Translations under genes and position numbers: made by a program | Part shown: positions 7,911-58,339 of the stretch, piece after piece | Position numbering within the stretch: position 1 is the first letter of the stretch | How the letters are laid out: each line of letters starts with the position of its first letter | The notes under the pieces: model-generated | Database searches by the model: none | Seen by the model: the letters and a program-made list of their open reading frames with translations, nothing else | Told to the model about the DNA's origin: nothing | NCBI RefSeq assembly: GCF_004010195.1 | Contig: NC_057729.1 | Span: 31,404,544-31,468,543 of the forward strand | Source: Chiloscyllium plagiosum | Lineage: Eukaryota | DNA: 64,000 nucleotides | Reading direction: 5' to 3'

Positions 7911-8668
7911 CATTACACAGGTGAGACGGTAACCCATAGATTGTATATTACCCTTCAAAGAATTCAAGCCTATTTACAGTATCTTCGATTAACACCAGTG
8001 ATACGCCAAGACATTGAAAACTGATATTTTGAAAAAGTTGCATTTTGCTTCATCTGCAATTTTGAAATTAATTATTTAACCAGTGCTAGTCATATGAACA
8101 ATCTGCTGGTGGCAATAAATAAAGAAAGTGGACTGAAAAGCTTTTCTTAACTTCATAGAAAAGTTCCTGAAGAACCGATATAAAATTTATCCTGGCCAAC
8201 TAACTTTTCAAGGTTGTGATTTTCTTCTGTCATGAAGGAAGAATATAGAAAGTTAGGCAGGAATTTAGAAAGGAGGTCCTTGAGGGTAGTAATATTTGGA
8301 TTACTGCTGGTGCTATGAGCTAGTGAGGGTAGGGATAGGAGGATAGAGCAGATGAATGCATGGCTGAGGAGCTGGTGCAAGGAAGAAGGGTTCACATTTC
8401 TGGATCATTGGAATCTCTTCTAGGGTAGAAGTGATCTGTACAAGAAGGATGGATTGCACCTGAATTGGAAGGGGACTATTATACTGGCAGGAAGATTTGC
8501 TAGAGCTGCTCAGGAGGATTTAAACTAGTAAAATGGGGGGGATCCCAGGGAGATAGTGAGGAAAGGGATCAATCTGAGACTGGTACAGTTGAGTAAAGGA
8601 GCAACTCAAACAGTCAGGGCAGGAAAGAACAAAGCGGAGAACAAAGTAGGACTGATAAATTAAACTGC

Positions 8669-8860
8669 TAAAAATCACACAAGATCAGATTATAGTCCAA
8701 CAGGTTTATTTGGAAGCACTAGCTTTCGGAGCACTACCATCTGATGAAGGAGCAGTGCTCCGAAAGCTAGTGCTTCCAAATAAACCTATTGGACTATAGC
8801 CTGGTCTTGTGTGATTTTTAACTTTGTACACTCCAATCCAACACCAGCATCTCCAAATCA
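8669..8860 (+). mobile_element. Penelope-type short terminal repeat, family B, with 5' fold-back and hammerhead core
   Basis: 12-bp TSD aaattaaactgc (8657-8668 / 8861-8872). 8669-8735 is an inverted copy of ~8754-8820. Confidence 0.85.
8738..8772 (+). ncRNA. Minimal type I hammerhead ribozyme motif
   Basis: CUGAUGA-A-GGAGC(AGU)GCUCC-GAAA-GC-UA. Helix III is the palindrome AGCU; short helix I CAU/GUG. Confidence 0.75.
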
Positions 8861-9982
8861 AAATTAAACTGCATTTACTTCAATACAAGAGGCCTAACAG
8901 AGAAGGCAGATGAATTTAGGGCATGGTTAGGAACATGGGACTGTGATATTAAAGCAACTACAGAGACATGGCTCAGGGATGGACAAGACTGGCAGCTTAA
9001 TGCTCCAGGATACAGGAAGGATAGAAAGGGGGACAAGAGAGGAGGTGAAGTGGAGTTTTTGATAAGGAATAGCATCACTGTTGTACCTAGGGTTCATATT
9101 CCAGGGAATATATCCAAGGACATTGTTTGGGTGGAACTGAGAAATAAGAAAGGGATGATCACCTTATTGGGATTGTATTACAGATCCCTAATAGTCAGCA
9201 ACAGATTGAGAAACAAATTTGCAAGAAGCTCTCAGTTATCTGTAAGAATAATAGGGTGGTTATGGTAGGGGATTTTAAATTTCCAAACATAGACTGGGAT
9301 TGCCATAGTTTAAGGATTTAAATGGAGAGCAATTTGTTAAGTGCTGTACAAGAAACATTTCTGATTCAGTATGTGGATGTACCTACTAGAGAAGGTGCAA
9401 AACCGGACCTACTCCTGGGAAATAAGGCAGGGCAGGTGGAGTGATTAGATGTCAGTGGGAGAGCACTTTGGGGCCAGCAACTATAATTTTAAAATAGTGA
9501 TGAAAACGTATAAATCAGATCTAAAAATTGAAGTTCTAAATTGGAGAAAGGCCAATTTTGATGGTATTAGGCAAGAACATTGAAAAGCTGATTGGAGGCA
9601 GATGTTCACAGGTAAAGGGACAGCTGGAAAATGGGAAGCCTTCATAAATGAGATAATAAGAATCCAGAGAAAGTATATTCCTGTTAGGGTGAAAGGAAAG
9701 GCTGTTAGGTGTTGGGAATGCTGGATGACTAGAGAAATTGAAGTTTTGGTTAAGAAAAAGAAGGAATCATATGTCAGGTATAGATAGCAGAGATTGAGTG
9801 AATCCTTGGAGAGTATAAAGGCAGTAGGAGTATACTTAAGAGGGAAATCAAGAGGGCAAAAAGGGGACATGAGATAGCTTTGGAAAATAGGGTTAAGGAG
9901 AATCTGAAGAGATTCTGTTAATACATGAAGGACAAAAAGGTATCTAGGGAGAGAATAGGACCCTTCAAAGATCAGGAGAATC

Positions 9983-10010
9983 GACGTTTCGGGCATGAGC
10001 CCTTCCTCAG
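9983..10010 (-). ncRNA. Minimal hammerhead ribozyme motif
   Basis: Minus strand reads CUGAGGA-A-GGGC(UCAU)GCCC-GAAA-CG-UC. Confidence 0.75.
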
Positions 10011-10013
10011 GAA

Positions 10014-10456
10014 GCTGCTCTAGCAAATCTCCCTGCCAGTAAAATAGTCCCCTTCCACATCAGGTGCAATCCGTCCTTCTTGTACAGATCATTTCTACCC
10101 TAGAAGAGATTCCAATGATCCAGAAATGTGAACCCTTCTTCCTCGCACCAGCTCCTCAGCCATGCATTCATCTGCTCTATCCTCCTATCCCTACCCTCAC
10201 TAGCTCATAGCACCGGCAGTAATCCAAATATTACTACCCTCAAGGACCTCCTTTCTAAATTCCTGCCTAACTTTCTATATTCTCCCTTCATGACAGAAGA
10301 AAATCACAACAGTGAAAAGTTAGTTGGCCAGGATAAATTTTATATCGGTTCTTCAGGAACTTTTCTATGAAGTTAAGAAAAGCTTTTCAGTCCACTTTCT
10401 TTATTTATTGCCATCAGCAGATTATTCATATGACTAGCACTGGTTAAATAATTAAT
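10014..10456 (-). repeat. Inverted duplicate of 8067-8510
   Basis: The reverse complement matches 8067-8510 with about 14 substitutions in ~443 bp. The ORF track shows near-identical 80-aa translations at 8153-8395(-) and 10128-10370(+). Confidence 0.97.
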
Positions 10457-10466
10457 AGTCCCCTTC

Positions 10467-10494
10467 CTGAAGAAGGGCTCATGCCCGAAACGTC
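10467..10494 (+). ncRNA. Minimal hammerhead ribozyme motif
   Basis: CUGAAGA-A-GGGC(UCAU)GCCC-GAAA-CG-UC. GUC cleavage triplet; palindromic helix III ACGU. Confidence 0.8.
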
Positions 10495-11237
10495 GATTCT
10501 CCTGCTTCTTGGATGCTGCCTGACCTGCTGCGCTTTTCCAGCAACACATTTTCAGCTCTGATCTCCAGCATCTGCAGTCCTCACTTTCTCCCTTCAAAGA
10601 TCAGCAAGGCAGCCTATGTGTGGAGCTGCAGGAGATGGGGAAGATACTAAATGAGCATTTTGCATCAGTGTTTACTGTGAAAAAGGACATGGAAGATATA
10701 GAATGTGGGGAAATAGATGGTGACATCTTGAAAAAAATCCATATTATAAAGGAGGAAGTGCTGGATGTCTTAACATGTATAAAGGAGGATAAATCCCCTG
10801 GACCTGATCAGGCGTACCCTAGAACTCTGTGGGAAGCTAGCCTATGCCTGATTAGGAATGCTGGGCCCCTTGCTGAGATATCTGTGTCATCAATAGTCAC
10901 AATTGAGGTGCCGTAAGATTGGAGGTTGGCCAACGTGGTGCCACTATTTAAGAGGTGGTAAGCCAGAGAACTATCGACTGATGAGCCAGACAAGTTGTTA
11001 GAGGGAATCCTGAGGGATAGGATTTACATGTATTTGGAAAGGCAAGGAGTGATTAGGGATAGTAAACACAGTTTTGTGCATGGAAAATCATGTCTCACAA
11101 ACTTGATTTATGAGGAAGTAACAAAGAGGATTGATGAGGGCAGAGTGGTGGGCATGATGTATATGGACTTCAGTAAGGCTTGCAACAAGGTTCCTCATGT
11201 TAGACTGGTTAACAAGGTTAGATCTCATGGAATACAA

Positions 11238-21779: not shown

Positions 21780-24700
21780 CAAGTCGGTCCTTAGACTCAG
21801 GCAAAAAGAAGAGAATTGGTGATAGAAAACTATAACGTCTAAAACCAATATGTCACATGCTATTCCTGCTGTTGGACTGTTGATAGCCTGGGATACTCAT
21901 TTTATTCCTTCACTTATACCGTTCCCCCAAGACCTGATCAGACACAAGTGCATATTCAGTTCCCCAGGCTGCAAATCACAGTCATCCTATACTCTCTTTG
22001 TCAAAACGTGCGGTACTGGAAAAGCACAGCAGGTCAGGCAGCATCTAAGGAGCAGAAGAATCGATGTTTTGGGCATAAGTCCTTCATCAGTTTGGCCAAC
22101 CAGAAAGCATCAACACTCATTCTGGATATTTGTAGCGAATACAGGAACGAATTAGCATTTCTGAACAAACTAGCAAACCTCCTCAGAACCTCTGTTATCT
22201 CCCATCCTTCTGGGTGTCCTGGACCCCGAGGGCTATGCGAGTCCGATAATCCTAGAGGATGTGCTGTAACTTTTGTTTTGCCCAACTGACAGACACAACA
22301 CGATTGGCGAAGTCAGCTGATAAGGCTGAGGTAAGTTTGGTCAAATTGTAGGTGATCTCTAAAATAACCACTGTAACATCATGTAATATCACTTTGCGAT
22401 TCCCAAATCTAACTGTCCCATCTGCAGGGAGTGACATGGGGTCGCTGAGAACTTTGTGATTTTCTAGTACCTACAAGCTGACAAATTAAAACATTAAATC
22501 ATCATCACCTAGCTGATTAACAATGCCTAATTATCGGTCTTAACAATGTTGTCCCTCTAGTCCAGAATCCTAGACCAATGGAGACAGATTAGTCCATCGT
22601 CTGTGATGTTCACTCATGTTAGACCACACCAATGTGTCCCCACTGTGAATATCCACTGATAACATAATTGTCCAACACTTACAGGTGCCATAAACTCTCT
22701 TCTTGTCCACATTTCTATTTGTGTCATCAGCATAAACTATGTTGGCCTGGTGCAGAGCAATGGCACTTGACTTCATTTGCAACAGTGTCTCATCGGGTTG
22801 GGTGGTGCCCCAGGAAAGGTACAGTTCAGTCCAGGATTAGGTAAGCAGAATGTCACAAGCAATTGTTTGTATCATTTCCTCTATTCCTTTCTGATAGGAT
22901 AACCTGAATTATACCAGTGTTGGTTCTGTCAGCGATCCATATGTGCAGTTTTCCTATCTATTTTCCACTTCATCCTTTCAGTACTTGCAAGTTCGCTCCA
23001 GAATACAGAAAGGTGCTTTTGCTGATGTGCACAATGGGTGCCTCCAGGTTATTAGGAAAACGATTGCTGCTGCTGCAGTCCTCCAGGCTGCAATTGCTCT
23101 AAGGATTTATTTGAAACAAAATAATTAAGTGAACGGCTGTTTGCTTTCCTGCAGACAGAAAGAGACTGAGTAATAAAGGATCACCTATGACCAAAGCTGC
23201 CACCTTTCTCTTTCTGCCGTATCTAGGAACATGCAGGTGTCACTTCTCATTATCACTTCATGTGGCCCCTGCCATCTCAGAATGGAGTCCAAGAACTTCT
23301 TAATCATAACCTTCTCACTCACATTTTGAAAATCCCTAACTCTTTGCTCCTGTTGTTCCTTTCCTTTGTCTGTGGTCACCTACTGCTCCCTTACCTCAGA
23401 TCTCAACTCCTTTAACTGTTCACACAACACTACCACGTATTTCCTAATTCAACCTCTCAATGGTTCCACTTTCTGCTGCTGTTCCTTCCAAAAGCTGCAC
23501 AGCCCTTCCAGTCACTAGTTCAAATGATATTAGTCCACTTTGGGGTTGCTCTTAGCTGCATTCAAATTATAGAGAATATCTACCCGTTCTCTCCCCCCAG
23601 TACATTCTATGACCTTTTCTAAGGTTTGGTTCAGTTGTTGTACTCTGCCTAAATGTTAGGATTGGTGCTAGACATGAAATCTAAGCTTTATTCAAGTAAT
23701 TGATATACTTTCTTCATTGATGTCCATATGAAATTAATTTCTTGACCTGAATCTATTTGGTAGGTCATTCACCACCTTGATATTACTTCTATTAGAATTC
23801 CTGCTACAGTCAGGGCTGAGCAGTCCTGCATTGGGAAAACATTCATTTTTCACATGAAATGATCCATTATTACTAGACAATAAGTTTTCCCTCTGTTGTT
23901 AGGAAGGAGACCTGTGATGTTCACCTATAGGTTCTCTTGATCTTGATTTTATTGTTCTTTGATCTTGCCTTTAATGGGCTTTCCAACATTATGTTCTGTG
24001 CAAATCAAACATTTTTGATAATATATATCCCAATCTATGCCAGGCCCCAAGCAATGACTCTCAATACCTTACAAAGTTGCATTTCTTTCCTAGTGTGCAG
24101 TGTGTCTTATATTTATGATGTCTGCCTGACAAATTGTAGCTGCTATTCTACCCTCTTTTTATTGTGTATTTTAACAGGATCTTTTCATTTTCCTTATTTT
24201 CTATTCCTCAGACAGAATTTTAACACTGACCTCCTCTGGGCCAATGGCGTTAGCATACACATGATGATGCTGAATTTTAAAACAGGTGCCTGGTGCCACT
24301 GTTTCACCAGCTGATCTGCCCACTGATTCATTTTCTGGGTGTGGGTCACCCATTCTTATGTGGACGTTGACCTTGATGGCTGCCACTTCATCTGGCTGTC
24401 CTGCCACCTCCACCAGTGATCAAACAATCTCTTTATGTTTAATGTGACTTCCTCCTGATGTTAAATATCCCCTTGACAATGCTGCCATTTAGTCATACAC
24501 AATCCTGAGGTATCCTGAGTCCTTCTTTTCAAGATATACCAGATCATTTAGGGTCTGGTTCTCTGGAGAATTTCTTATATGTCATGTACATTCTTTTGGC
24601 AGATTCATTGGACAATTCCCGCAGATTTTGGATGATTTCTGTTATTAGTCCCAGTCGGAGTGTCCATTATCCAATGCCCTCATGCTTTGTTCCTAAACCC

Positions 24701-27589: not shown

Positions 27590-28065
27590 AGGATTGTAAT
27601 GAGGAGGAATTTCATCTCTCAGAGGGCTTTTAGTCTTTAGAATTCTGTTCCTAGAGAGCAACAAAGACTTGGTCATTGAATATACATCCAAACCTGAGTT
27701 AGACAGATTTTTGATCTATAATGCAGGCATGTTATGGAGACAGAGTCGACAGTGTAGTGCTGGAAAAGCTCAGCAGGTCAGGCAGCATCCGAGGAGAAGC
27801 AGAATCAATGTTTCGGGCACAAGACCTTCATCAGGAATTTCTCCTGCTCCTCAGATGCTGCCTAACCTGATGTGCTTTTCCAGCACTACACTCTCAACTC
27901 TGATCTCCAGCATTTGCAGTCCTCACTTTCTCCATGTTATGGAGACAGACAGGAATAAAGAGTTAAGAGTTAAGACTGCCATCAGATCAGTCATGATTTT
28001 ATTGAATGATGGAAAATGTTCAAGGGGCTGGATGACTTGTCCCATTCCTATTTCTTATGACCTTG
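27590..28065 (+). mobile_element. CR1 3' fragment interrupted by a family A insertion
   Basis: MRRNFISQR...ELDRFL on the left and atcagtcatgattttattgaatg...cctatttcttatg tail on the right. Confidence 0.75.
27745..27932 (+). mobile_element. Family A Penelope-type fold-back repeat; hammerhead in the inverted arm (27807-27834, minus)
   Basis: 17-bp TSD catgttatggagacaga (27728-27744 / 27933-27949). Inverted arms; ends in cctcactttctc. Confidence 0.9.
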
Positions 28066-33646: not shown

Positions 33647-33780
33647 AGGTGAAAGTGAGGACTGCAGATGCTGGAGATCAGAGACAAGATTAGAGTGGTG
33701 CTGGAAAAGCAGGTCAGGCAGCATCCGAGGAGCAGGAAAATCGACATTTCGGGCAGGAGCCCTTCATCAGGAATCTGATT
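33647..33780 (-). mobile_element. Family A Penelope-type repeat with hammerhead (33743-33770)
   Basis: 14-bp TSD ctatacaaggatat (33633-33646 / 33781-33794). Minus strand reads CUGAUGA-A-GGGC(UCCU)GCCC-GAAA-UG-UC. Confidence 0.9.
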
Positions 33781-34199: not shown

Positions 34200-36568
34200 T
34201 GCTTAAGGCTGTAGAGAAGATTTTAAAATTGTTAGAAAGGAGGAGTGTTTGGAAGAAGAGAAGTGTAGGCTAACAAAGCAAGAGCATATAACACCTTGAC
34301 AGTACAGCGATAATGATATCCAAAGTGAGGCAGGAATAGAGATAATATATAAACAAATAGGATCAACGGGATTAAAAAAAAGTGGCAAAAAGGCAAAAAT
34401 AATGGCTCTCTACTTGAATGGTCTTAGTATTTCGGACAAAAAAATGGATTAATGGTACAAGTTCAGATTAATGGATATAATCATAATCATTACCAAGCTC
34501 GAAACTAAATATTCAGGGGATGTGACTTTTCAGAAAGATAGGTAGGAAGGAAAGGGTAGTGGCTACCATACAGATGGAATAAGTAACTGTAAGTATGAAT
34601 AATATGAGAGGCTGGATAAGCTGGGCCTTTTTTTTTTCTGGCGCATAGGATGACATTAGAGGCTTCTAAAATCATGAGGGGCATAGATAAGGTGAACAGC
34701 AAAGGTCTTTTCCATAGAGTGGGAAAGTTCAAAACTAGAAGGCATAATATTAAGATGAGAAGAGAAAGATTTAAAAGAGACCTGAGGAGTAACTTTTTCC
34801 ACACAGCGGGTAGTTCGTATATAGAATGAACTGCCACAAGTAGTAGATGCAGATACAGTTGCAACATTTCAAAGATGTTTGGACAAGAATAGGAAAGGGT
34901 AAGAGGGATATGGGCCGAACTCAGGCCAATGCAAAATTTGGTCAGCATGGAGGAGTTGGACTGAAGGGTCTATATCCATGCTGTATAACTCTACTATTAG
35001 ATAAAAAAGGGAAGAAGACACTGATAAGAGTAATCTATAGTCCCCATAGTAGTCACTACATGGTGGAACAGAGAATATGATGGGAAAATGTTAGAGTTTA
35101 TTAAAAAGGGTGTAATAGCAGAATATATAGAAGCACATAATATGATCAAACAGAATCAGCTTTATGAAGTGGAAATCATGCTTGACAAATTCTTTGAGGA
35201 GGTGACAAGCAGAATAGATAAAGGAAAAGCAGGGAATGAATATATTTGGATTTTCATGAGGCATTTGATAAGGTACCACACATTAGGTACTTAATGAGAT
35301 GTGCCCATGGTATTGGGGTAATATATTAGCATGGATAGAGAGTTGACTAACCAACAAAAGAAAGAGAGTTGGGGTAAATGAGGCATTTTCAAGATGGCAG
35401 CCTGTAACTAGAAAAGTACCACAGGGATCAGTGATGAGGCCACAGTTATTTACAATATCTATTAATGACTTGGATAAGGAAAGTGAATATACTACAGCCA
35501 AGTTTACAGATGACACAAAAGAAGTTGGGAAGATAAGTGGTGAGGATGACACAAACAGTCTTCAGAGGGATGTAGACAAATTAAATGAGCAAGCAAAACT
35601 TGGCAAATGGAAAATAATGTGGCATTATTCACTTTGACAGAAACAACAAAGCAGCTGAATATTATTAAAATGTAAAAAGAATGCAAAAAGCGACAGAACA
35701 GACAAATTAAGGAGTCCTTGTGCATGAATTACAACAAGGTTTAGTGGGTAATAGAGAGGTCAAGTGGAATGATGGTCATTAGTTAAAAAGGAATAGAGTA
35801 TAAAAGGAGTAAGGATTTGCTAAAACTATTCAGGTACTAGTCAGAACTTAGCTGGATTAATTTAGTGAATAATTTAGTTCCCCTTTCTAAAGAAAGATAT
35901 ATTGATATTGGAGGCAATCCAGAGAAGGTTCACGAGAATGATACCATGATGTAGAGGTGCCGATGTTGGACTGGGTGGACAACATTAAAAATCATACAAT
36001 AACAGGTTATAGCCCAGCAGGTTTATTTGGAAGTACTAGCTGTCAGAGCATTTTCCTTCAAATTAACCTGTTGGAGTATAACCTAGTGTTGTATGATTTT
36101 AAACCTAGACTGATACCAGATATAGGGGAATTGTCTTAAGAGGAGAAGTTGAGTAGAGTGGGCCAGTTACTCACTGGAATATCAAAGAATAAGACACTCC
36201 TTTATTGAAACATATAAGATTCTTCAGGGTCTTGACAGGATAGACGCAGAAGGGTTGTATCTGCCTGTGGGTCAGACTCGGACTAGAGGGCATAATCTCA
36301 AAACAAGGTTTAGCACCTTTAAGACAGCGATGAGGATATTGAATTGAGGGGAATTCTCTTACTGCAGCAGTTGTAGAGACTGGGTCATTAAATATATTCA
36401 AGCCTGAGATAGACAGATTTTTATTCAGTAAGGGAATCAAGGGTTACGAGGAAATGCAAGGAAGTGGATTTGAGATGATCAGATCAGCTATGATATCATT
36501 GAATGGCAAAACAGTCTCAATAGGCTGAATGGCCTACTTCTGCTCCTATCTCTTATCACCATATGGTC
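34200..36568 (+). mobile_element. Degenerate, internally deleted CR1 LINE with a nested CR1 3' fragment (~34608-34995) and a family B repeat
   Basis: LYLN APE start at ~34408, VPQGSV, FTISINDLD, AKFTDDTK, SLQRDVDKL; gctgaatggcctacttctgctcct tail. Confidence 0.85.
35947..36104 (-). mobile_element. Family B Penelope-type fold-back repeat with decayed hammerhead
   Basis: Homologous to 8669-8860. Imperfect 14-bp TSD cgagaatgatacca / ctagactgatacca (35933-35946 / 36105-36118). Inverted arms. Confidence 0.8.
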
Positions 36569-38456: not shown

Positions 38457-38584
38457 GGAGAAAGTGAGGACTGCAGATGCTGGAGATCAGAGCTGAAAAA
38501 TGTGTTGCTAGAAAAGCGCAGCAGGTCAGGCAGCATCCAAGGAGCAGGAGAATCGACGTTTCGGGCATAAGCCCTTCTTCAGCT
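38457..38584 (-). mobile_element. Family A Penelope-type repeat with intact hammerhead core (38555-38582)
   Basis: 16-bp TSD catataagaaaactta (38441-38456 / 38585-38600). Minus strand reads CUGAAGA-A-GGGC(UUAU)GCCC-GAAA-CG-UC. Confidence 0.92.
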
Positions 38585-54880: not shown

Positions 54881-55682
54881 CTGGATCAGATCAGCAGCAG
54901 CGCCAGGACTGGACCAAACTGCCTCTAGTCCGATAAAGAGACCGGATAAATTGCAGAAGCTTTTTCGCCTCTTTAACAGTCTGGGATGGAGGAGTGGAGG
55001 ACCAACCGTTCTTCAGCTGATTGCAGCTCTAACCATTGCTGGTGCCTGGGAAGAGTTGCTGATCCCTTCTCTTCAGTATTGTAGAACGAGATGGGCATGA
55101 AAACAGTGAATGCAGGGAGATCAATCGCCTTTTTTTCTCCCTTCCCCGCTCTATTCAAGTGAACCAAAAAAAAGCCAGCGCATTGGAGTTCGTTAACAAT
55201 GGATGTGTCAGGGACACTTTCATCCGACGCAGAAGCTACCCGGCAATGGAATCGGTAAATCTGCTAAAAACTAGTGGTGCTATACACTGTAATTATGGGT
55301 TTAGGCGGAATAACAATGCGCAATGTCCTGTCTACACTGTAATTTGGGAAGAAAAACTGGATTTTGCAATCGATATTAATGTGCTGGTCTTGAACGTGGA
55401 GATTAACTGGAAGCAAGAGCAAAAAGCCCCTTAAATTGTAGAGAGTTGTTTTCTTTATCTTTAAACTACAGAAGCACGGAACTTAGCATCCTGATCGATG
55501 AAGATTGTGTTGTTTTCATGTGTTATATGTTTTTTTCTTTTGTTCAACTATTCGGCCAGTACGTATTTTTAAAGAAATAACAATAAGTGGGTGGATTTTC
55601 AATGCAAATAAAGGTTGTTTAATTGGTGATTTAGAGCCAACCGGACAGTTTCTGTTACTTGGCGATGCTGACTCCTGCTCTC

Positions 55683-55742
55683 CGTGTTCACAGCGGACCT
55701 TGATTTAATGTCCATACAATTAAGGCACGCGGTGAATGCCAA
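55683..55742 (+). ncRNA. mir-124: microRNA-124 precursor (5p 55683-55704; 3p mature 55721-55742)
   Basis: Exact vertebrate mature sequence UAAGGCACGCGGUGAAUGCCAA and star sequence CGUGUUCACAGCGGACCUUGAU, with loop UUAAUGUCCAUACAAU. Lower stem ctct/agag. Confidence 0.99.
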
Positions 55743-58339
55743 GAGAGGGGCCGTCAAACTTCAATCCCAATTTAATTGGACGCAGCAGCCTTTAAAGAAA
55801 CACCACAATATCATCCGCCTATGTAATCAAATAGGGCAAGTCTACCCTTTTAATATTTAAGATCCAAATTTTTTTTAAATTCTAGCGTTTAGGTTTCGGT
55901 CGAAAAGTTACAGCGCCTACGCAACGTTATTTTCTTCGACCTTATGTAATAAGTGGGCCAGCCTGTAGTTTAGATTGAATTAATACCAACACCGGACAAA
56001 AGCAGCGAGGTGTAGTTTCAGTCAGCTGTTGTGATTTCTCTTATTCTTTTTGATGATAGATTTCGATTTGTTCCAGTTATTATCACATTGTATTTGTAAA
56101 CTGGCGTGCGGTCTTGTAAATCCGAAGCTTAGTAGATCTTCTACTTTGTACATTCTCGGCTCGATTAGGCGAGTTCTCTCTCGCTGCTGTATTCCTGCAC
56201 AGCCGACTATTAAATAGCAATTTTGCCTAAAAGGACCTGGTTTCAGTAGTTGAAATTATTTGTGTTCGTACCTGTCTCTCTGCCAATCTTCCTCAAGAGC
56301 CAGAAGTAAAACGGAGGCAATTCACTTAATGGAACCCCAAGGTTAATGACAATCATTGCTTCATTGTTATAACACAAGAACCTCATAAAATGTTGTCGGG
56401 CTATAAATAATGGGTTGAGATAGGGCCCTGTCAGCAATGTTCAAAGGGTTTGTTTTTAATATCTCGCGCAAAGTCAGCATTGCATTTGACCTAAAGGGCA
56501 CCTTCTTAAATTGGCTTTTATTTTTTTAAAAATCTTGTACCATTAATTTACTTTTGACTATTAACTCTTGCCTATTACATGAATCATATTCACAAATGTC
56601 AATATTCAGTCGCACATTTATATACCAATTTGCTTTGGACGGATTATTTAAAAGAATTTCGGAAAGGGGCGATGTTCTAAACACTACCAGTGATTGATAA
56701 ACTGTATTGTCAGTTTAAATAAGGGAAATTTAATAGAATGCTACATTGCAATCTAGAATTCAACAAAACAATCCGGGCTTTTCTACCTCAAAAACTCGAC
56801 CCTATATTTGCTCAATGCAGGCAGAATCTTTTTATTCTGCTCGCTCTGACGTGCAGGCGTGACAAAATGTCATTTTAAGGTGTGTCAATGTGTTTCCATT
56901 TGTAGTTCTGCTATTTAAATTGTTCAGAGTATATGCGTAAATACTAGACTCGGAAAAGAGTATAGGAGAGATCAGTTTGAACTGTAGGGAGCAATTTGTG
57001 TGAACTCCTTGCGTTGATACAAAGAAATAAAGCGAGAATGAATCTTAGCAAATCGTTCAAAGGCTATGTAACCATGGCCCACGTCATCATAGTTGAGGTC
57101 GCCCTTGCATTATTCGATTTGTCTTAAAACATGAGATCGCTGCAGATAAATTCAAAATCTTATCGTTAAAATGTTTTTTTTCCTCATGTCAAATATACAA
57201 ACAAGCTTAGATTTTTGTGTTTAGAAGGGTTGTGATGTATTGGTAACGAGAGGTTACTGTACCGAACTCAGTCAGACTGGGAGGTTTAGAGGCGAAGATT
57301 CTAAATTCACTTCACTGGCGCGATCTATTGAGATTCTTTGGGTTTTAAACGATCAATTCTAACAGCAGTTGCGTTATGTACAACATTCCATTGAATAGAA
57401 TACACATTTTGATGTTTTGTTTTATGTGTGCAGATGGAAGACAACAGCGAACAGACGTACTGAATGGTCTTGGATACTGGGCCGATGAAACAGAACCAGG
57501 AAATAGTACTAAAATCCAAAACAGATTAAACATGATAGAGTTGGACAGAACATAATTTTATGCAAACACTCTTTTGTTTGCCCCATAACCCCAAACCTTT
57601 GTCACTCATTGCCCTCCCTTCTAGCTGTTGGTTAATATAAATCAAAGTCCATCACGATTGCCTATTACATCACCTGGTGTTCAATGGAACTGAAGGTCTA
57701 GCCATTTCTCTGTGCTATATCGATGAACAGAATTGATCGCATTTTCACCAATCCGAAACAGCCTATTAATAGTTGAACAATATATTTTCACTGTCGATGC
57801 TGTAACATCGGGGCGTTTCGGTGAACCCTTTAGTTTTCTCTGTTGACCCCGTTGCACCACCTATTATAATTCTGTGGAGTGTTGGCTTTCTCCCATACTG
57901 CAGTATTGCGTGTTATTAAAGCGCCCCCTCCAGGTTCATACTCTTCATTTCCGATCCGAAATCTAAGCGTTCGAATCAAGTCTATCAGTATGAAGTATTT
58001 TTACAATTTTAAACGTACATTCATTTCAGCCACCGAACTACCATTTAACGTGTATCGAAACAAAGCAAGGTTAGCACAAAATTATCCCTAACACAAAATG
58101 GAAATCTCGGATGTGCATTTATGGAACGTCTAAACTGCTTCTCAGAACTTCACAGTTAAGTGATTTCTCTGAGATGTTCTTGTCTTCTAGGAAGACTTAG
58201 CACGTTTCATAACCACATTGAGATGAATGATCGGGTTTTTTTTTTGTTTCACTCGCTATTCGAGGGAGGAATAGTGGGCCCAACCTGTTTTCTACAAGTT
58301 CCAATTGTACTTCCTCCAAAGAACTGCTGCATCTCAATG

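Follow-up and report, generated by a model that had tools for sequence, protein, structure and literature searches.

A stretch of 64,000 nucleotides of the Chiloscyllium plagiosum genome, hereafter the window, contains at positions 9961-10604 an insertion in which two head-to-head arms of a Penelope-like element are separated by DNA that does not belong to the element. This arrangement raises the questions of where the intervening DNA came from, whether the event is peculiar to this locus and how foreign sequence could come to lie between the two arms.

One target-site duplication encloses an inverted copy of neighboring DNA

Analysis of the locus confirmed the multi-part structure proposed in a preliminary description of the window. 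A single 15-bp target-site duplication (TSD) encloses an inverted arm, a captured copy of nearby DNA, a short bridge and a direct arm (Table 1). The two arms align head-to-head (9976-10013 against 10464-10501), and the last three nucleotides of the left TSD (CAG, 9973-9975) are common to target and element. An origin by two separate insertions was considered and rejected for this locus. The bridge is the reverse complement of its donor segment at 15 of 15 positions, a length of match that none of 200 random stretches attained, and shows 4-nt microhomologies at TAAT and TTCC. It had previously been described as a re-copy (10454-10467) of 10043-10056 joined through aat and ttcc; that equality is correct and bridging microhomology is present, but the donor fits better by one base and its alignment yields the 4-nt overlaps given here.

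Table 1. Coordinates of the insertion, its donor and the host LINE within the window
Feature	Position	Strand	Remarks
Donor	8067-8510	+	Unique flank (to ~8233) and 5' part of host LINE
Host LINE copy	8233-11230	+	Decayed; endonuclease-like and RT-like pieces, both below the Pfam cut-off
Left TSD	9961-9975		CCCTTCAAAGATCAG; 15/15 identical to right TSD
Short inverted arm	9976-10013	-	Part of the Penelope-like terminal repeat; contains a minimal hammerhead core (10010 to 9983)
Captured copy of 8067-8510, inverted	10013-10456	-	430/444 identical (96.8%), 14 mismatches, gapless
Second short templated segment (bridge)	10453-10467	-	Matches donor 8467-8481; 7 new nt (10457-10463)
Direct arm	10464-10589	+	Minimal hammerhead core (10467-10494), terminal repeat, one-sided tail of ~33 nt (10557-10589)
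Right TSD	10590-10604		CCCTTCAAAGATCAG; 15/15 identical to left TSD

Searching the 3.56-Gb assembly with the flank (8020-8235) returned exactly two matches, the donor and the copy, which bears out the earlier proposal that the copy was taken from its own locus. Within the copy, CR1-like sequence stops near 10290, equivalent to donor position 8233, with loosely defined ends; the host LINE itself is presumably a CR1, as it was named in the preliminary description. The possibility that the flank belongs to a repeat fused to CR1 elsewhere was rejected on the same two matches. Retrotransposon transduction from a source element was likewise rejected: in transduction, what is carried along comes from beside the source element and not from beside the target. 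Here the donor lies next to the target site and has no further occurrence apart from the copy.

The arms resemble the terminal repeat of a Penelope-like element

Judged by sequence, both arms represent the terminal repeat of a Penelope-like element encoding a reverse transcriptase (RT) and a GIY-YIG endonuclease, possibly of the Neptune clade, which is characterized by a cysteine-rich linker ahead of the endonuclease and by its RT phylogeny. Among the loci surveyed below, a GIY-YIG piece preceded by CxxC motifs lies upstream of the same terminal repeat (L176, E 7.6e-4) and an RT piece lies between two such arms (L181, E 3.5e-6); both are partial matches that fall short of the Pfam cut-off, and a full element ORF was not seen. 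Combined with the head-to-head arms, the one-sided tail and the TSD, these fragments uphold the initial classification as a Penelope-type insertion. Units of this element comprise a tailed arm that reaches ~111 nt from the core and a second arm that stops 69-88 nt from the core, ~35 nt short. This end point is observed in 38 of the 42 TSD-bearing loci, where TSDs stay discrete at 13-20 nt as called; the window's inverted arm, which ends 33 nt from the search core, is among the four exceptions. A young subfamily (L157:4921-5147, L173-L176) carries an extra segment of ~180-230 nt fused in frame to the GIY-YIG region. All 40 scored matches to this segment are 100% identical, and it may have been captured long ago and amplified afterwards.

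Criteria for minimal hammerheads taken from the available text of PMC4209133 were applied to 10467-10494 (+) and 10010-9983 (-). The two cores, on opposite strands, contain the CUGANGA and GAAA boxes, the extra base after position 9, G10.1-C11.1 and the palindromic 15.2-16.2. The minimal hammerheads reported there for metazoan Penelope-like elements have the same core motif, extra base and palindromic stem III. In both arms, however, helix I has only two pairs beside the core, against an expected 4-5 bp; upon folding, stem II forms and helix I does not, and an Rfam search of the window gave no hammerhead match at E up to 1. The earlier reference to ribozyme cores on both strands hence holds for the sequence motifs but not for the Rfam and folding results, and ribozyme activity of the arms is, from sequence, unsupported. 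Opposite-strand hammerhead pairs 100-700 bp apart have been described in Schistosoma, where the available text leaves the spacer between pairs unanalyzed (PMC4209133). Identity as a non-LTR retrozyme was also considered. As defined in the accessible part of bioRxiv 10.64898/2026.07.22.740005, such elements need tandem same-strand units, each with a hammerhead, and this identity was rejected given the head-to-head arms.

Locally derived spacers recur across the genome

We searched the genome for head-to-head hammerhead cores at fixed gap ranges. The search identified 8,329 pairs at 4-34 nt (direct joins), 261 at 65-95 nt, 205 at 100-130 nt, 156 at 150-180 nt, 102 at 200-230 nt, 123 at 300-330 nt and 70 at 470-500 nt. 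The first 50 places per range were inspected, and from the resulting 300 for the six longer ranges, 66 with a non-element-looking end were picked by eye and analyzed with 10 kb around them; the rest looked element-derived. With the window, 67 loci were examined. One enclosing TSD was found in 42, 35 of which contain a non-element run of at least 22 nt.

The spacer matches its own neighborhood (within 5 kb, at least 93% identity) in 26 of these 35 loci, window included, or 25 of 34 without it, against a single match in 2,788 cross-locus comparisons of spacers and neighborhoods. This survey, suggested in the preliminary description as a check of generality, leads us to reject a one-off repair event. 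The nine non-matching spacers comprise two that are element-borne, three of only 31-34 nt, three unplaced and one whose donor is on the same contig at a distance of 1.95 Mb. The latter is a 74-nt capture (L092:5025-5098, with L221) at 98.6% identity to its donor, with next-best copies at 85% or below. The two element-borne spacers, those of L074 and L157, had a foreign appearance but are high-copy sequence of the element. Of the 25 loci for which no TSD was called, six also have local matches, many of the others being, by eye, two neighboring insertions. In six loci extended to 5-15 kb, and in the 20 kb to the left of the window, no donor was found at 93% identity or above.

Interpolation from 27 local cases in the 300 listed places gives a rough estimate of ~160 local captures among ~10,000 pairs that keep both exact cores (~1-2%), a figure that misses captures between long arms and at gaps of 35-64 nt. 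In an unselected survey of 910,741 bases, the only local capture among 15 head-to-head pairs was that of the window. A second Penelope-like family presented 115 pairs at gaps of 100-130 nt; the 19 that were aligned showed no genomic local capture, their sole local match being the element's own longer arm.

Other configurations were also observed. Among the matches listed, near-identical complex centers recur at many unlinked sites (for example L004, L009, L012 and L014; L048, L053 and L056), which suggests that some whole palindromic or rearranged units were themselves re-copied. At L143:4750-5250 the element is centered in mirror-image flanks, indicating either a larger inverted duplication or a misassembly.

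Geometry, junctions and age of the captures

The geometry of the captures was evaluated on 23 non-adjacent cases, leaving out L085, which lies inside another repeat and has two candidate donors, and two loci with adjacent run-through (L080 and L135). In these two, arm, TSD and flank are copied in one run inside one outer TSD; this continuity exists as DNA only and hence points to a DNA template, although both could alternatively be later tandem duplications. Captures measure 33-444 nt (median 120), that of the window being the longest, and their donors lie 132-3,811 bp away (median 585), with 19 of 23 within 1.2 kb (p 2e-8 against the 4.7-kb search range). Donors occur to the left (11) and to the right (12). 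Relative to the tail, 9 lie on the tail side and 14 on the other, so that a consistent placement on the non-tail side was rejected. Orientation is inverted in 13 cases and direct in 10; the expectation that such captures would be characteristically inverted was not borne out.

Microhomology of at least 2 nt is present at 18 of 25 direct junctions, compared with 22.5% in a simulated null (p 2e-7), and is 0-1 nt at the remaining seven. Junction overlaps span 0-8 nt, and 21 of 46 junctions contain extra bases, several of which are re-copies of arm or donor. Most copies differ from their donors by 1-6%. Pooled mismatch is 1.6% between copy and donor and 1.9% between arms, suggesting that the copies are about as old as the insertions; the per-locus correlation of copy age with arm age was not significant (rho 0.27, p 0.22).

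Reads and other samples

None of the reads or contig pieces listed spans a capture junction, and a raw-read run, too shallow in its coverage, had zero depth at 10304-10435. Shares of 0.31-0.57 of words were obtained in 20 runs, which by itself is no evidence. One run (X1) contains a 699-nt contig that equals the copy at 160 of 160 positions (10297-10456) and continues into 539 nt unlike the window; it seems to represent the donor locus of a sample that lacks the insertion. Runs from two other organisms (X4, X8) carry the letters of the window donor at 10312 and 10414. The copy thus resembles the X1 donor allele more closely than the one assembled next to it, which supports an origin from this locus, and the agreement could arise from recombination since insertion, from an assembly phase switch or swap, or from copying of the homologue.

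Two cDNAs probably joined by locally templated repair synthesis

The anatomy of the insertion, the local origin of its spacer, the recurrence of such spacers and their geometry are direct observations. The process behind them was probably one in which two cDNAs were primed, one per cut target strand, and host repair sealed the joint between them by microhomology-primed synthesis that copied nearby DNA. A staggered cut would generate 13-17-nt 3' overhangs, and extension of both on element RNA from two start sites would produce a tailed and an untailed arm, usually stopping just upstream of the hammerhead core. The two resulting 3' ends, being of the same sequence, could not anneal fully and would be joined via 2-4-nt matches. 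In ~1-2% of pairs, one end would first prime on DNA hundreds to thousands of bases off, copy 30-450 nt, be released, occasionally re-prime and only then be joined. In the window, the cDNA on the bottom strand, which ends in GGAA, would prime at donor position 8467 and copy 11 nt, then re-prime at 8067 via ATTA and copy to 8510 before joining to the other arm; the same steps may equally have run in mirror order.

Intact TSDs and the near-fixed outer end of the short arm suggest that both target ends were primed on RNA, and DNA-templated synthesis at an open break is indicated by donors that are local, lie to either side and were copied in either orientation, by re-priming and by arm-TSD-flank run-through. 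The capture from 1.95 Mb away at L092 also speaks for this reading. Donors near the break, short microhomology and re-priming, all expected of break repair, are observed, and direct joints look like short-match joining among the 4-34-nt-gap pairs listed. The template switch during integration that was originally envisaged is supported; as for its proposed template, local DNA or nascent RNA, local DNA is favored, not proven. Assigning the copying to a host repair polymerase is our own choice: RNA templates or the element's own RT are possible, and the initiating end is unreadable from the sequence. In the X1 contig the donor equals the copy and not the window donor, which counts against a template identical to the allele assembled beside the copy.

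Some spacers are pieces of the element's own ORF, RT sequence included. These argue against host repair and are well explained by an RT jumping along RNA, and the lack of genomic capture in the second family (19 aligned of 115) is not predicted by a purely host-driven process. We therefore weighed a scheme, on balance somewhat unlikely, in which the element's RT jumps from the RNA end to a nascent transcript or exposed DNA strand close by and copies this template, after which it either jumps back or its product is joined to the second cDNA. Spacers derived from remote regions of the element transcript, a preferred end point of the arms immediately ahead of the hammerhead core (among the matches listed), the seven direct junctions with 0-1 nt of microhomology and the seemingly different capture rates of the two families would all fit such jumps, and for similar L1 events the available text of PMC11702581 leaves the choice between L1 enzyme and host factors open. 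Conversely, donors crowd within ~1 kb on both sides and are lacking at 5-15 kb in the six extended loci, the run-through copies require DNA, and repeated re-priming on arms resembles break repair. An extension of RT jumping, which we regard as unlikely, is that the telomerase-related Penelope RT leaves its RNA at the hammerhead and samples the physically nearest DNA or nascent RNA, sometimes the other allele or a site megabases off. If so, thousands of spacers across shark genomes would constitute a fossil record of germ-line chromatin contacts, as well as a steady source of small local duplications.

The second RNA priming assumed in the two-cDNA mechanism would be dispensable if a single cDNA folded back to form the inverted arm, with an occasional detour through local DNA. 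Self-priming is proposed in PMC3846280, and among the matches listed direct joints show short self-complementary overlaps and the subfamily variant is nearly always identical in the two arms. Fold-back nevertheless predicts scattered ends, and what we observe are intact TSDs and a short arm whose outer end is nearly fixed and matches the second RT start site described in PMC11167929, the window's own short arm being an exception. We thus find this alternative quite improbable.

Even less probable, in our assessment, is that the spacers arose after insertion through repair of fragile palindromes, or that they are artefacts in which assembly filled hairpin centers with neighboring sequence. The assembly does have N gaps at some hairpin centers, L143 sits between mirror-image flanks, and in the window the junction is without read confirmation and the X1 donor equals the copy. 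Joint overlaps of only 0-8 nt, copies mostly 1-6% off their donors with a divergence similar to that of the arms, and intact arms and TSDs all argue against such an origin; later hairpin repair is possible at single loci.

Relation to known systems

In the available text of two reports on endonuclease-positive Penelope-like elements, the insertion unit is an inverted 5'-truncated copy with a one-sided 30-40-bp tail, a hammerhead in the terminal repeat and a TSD (PMC8557442), and the Penelope protein cuts and extends both strands in vitro, two start sites defining the tail (PMC11167929). The units analyzed here share this inverted truncated copy, tail, terminal-repeat hammerhead and TSD. Locally templated DNA at the head-to-head joint is not described in those portions, which leave the joining step open, and it is at this joint that captures are found here. 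In Adineta vaga, unrelated host sequence also lies between Penelope terminal repeats within one TSD (PMC3846280). There, a whole gene between direct repeats was read as mobilization in trans, and non-coding donors are unmapped in the available text; here, donors adjoin the target, capture takes place at the inverted joint and the arrangement recurs in dozens of loci.

Locally templated sequence at the sealing joint is also known from LINEs, as excerpts of the respective reports indicate: in three L1 insertions, DNA close to the integration site served as template for sequence at the joint (PMC11702581), and zebrafish LINEs have flank-derived extra 5' nucleotides (PMC4245944). Those cases come from cultured cells and concern the cDNA-target joint, in contrast to the inherited captures at a cDNA arm-arm joint reported here, which span 33-444 nt and reach up to 3.8 kb. 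At double-strand breaks, microhomology-primed synthesis produces templated insertions, typically up to ~30 nt for POLQ, according to the accessible part of PMC11724301. Microhomology of 0-8 nt, re-priming and local donors are shared with our captures; the yeast fold-backs covered there are short, adjacent and inverted, whereas the captures are longer, farther and in both orientations.

Within the literature covered, no study traced Penelope spacers back to the neighborhood of the target, and the available portions of PMC2912911 and PMC9977147 hold nothing further on locally templated spacers. The genome-wide count, the geometry and the cross-locus control of Penelope captures are new, the ingredients being known from LINEs and break repair; the finding extends current models and does not overturn them. 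Recurrent, mappable filler implies that the center is an open intermediate with two ends and can copy other templates, and provides hundreds of natural events with which to distinguish twin priming from fold-back and DNA from RNA templates. The captures also give rise to local duplications of 30-450 bp in a vertebrate genome.

Other features of the window

The second hammerhead-bearing Penelope-like family is represented in the same host LINE by a palindromic insertion at 8657-8872, with a 12-bp TSD (AAATTAAACTGC) and a one-sided tail. Further copies of the two families lie at 22016-22090, 27735-27931, 33651-33773, 35947-36104 and 38459-38582; at 27.8 kb the copy forms a direct-join palindrome, with its direct arm beginning near the hammerhead cut site. 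The window also contains a mir-124 precursor at 55676-55747 (+), which scores 85.9 bits, above the Rfam cut-off.
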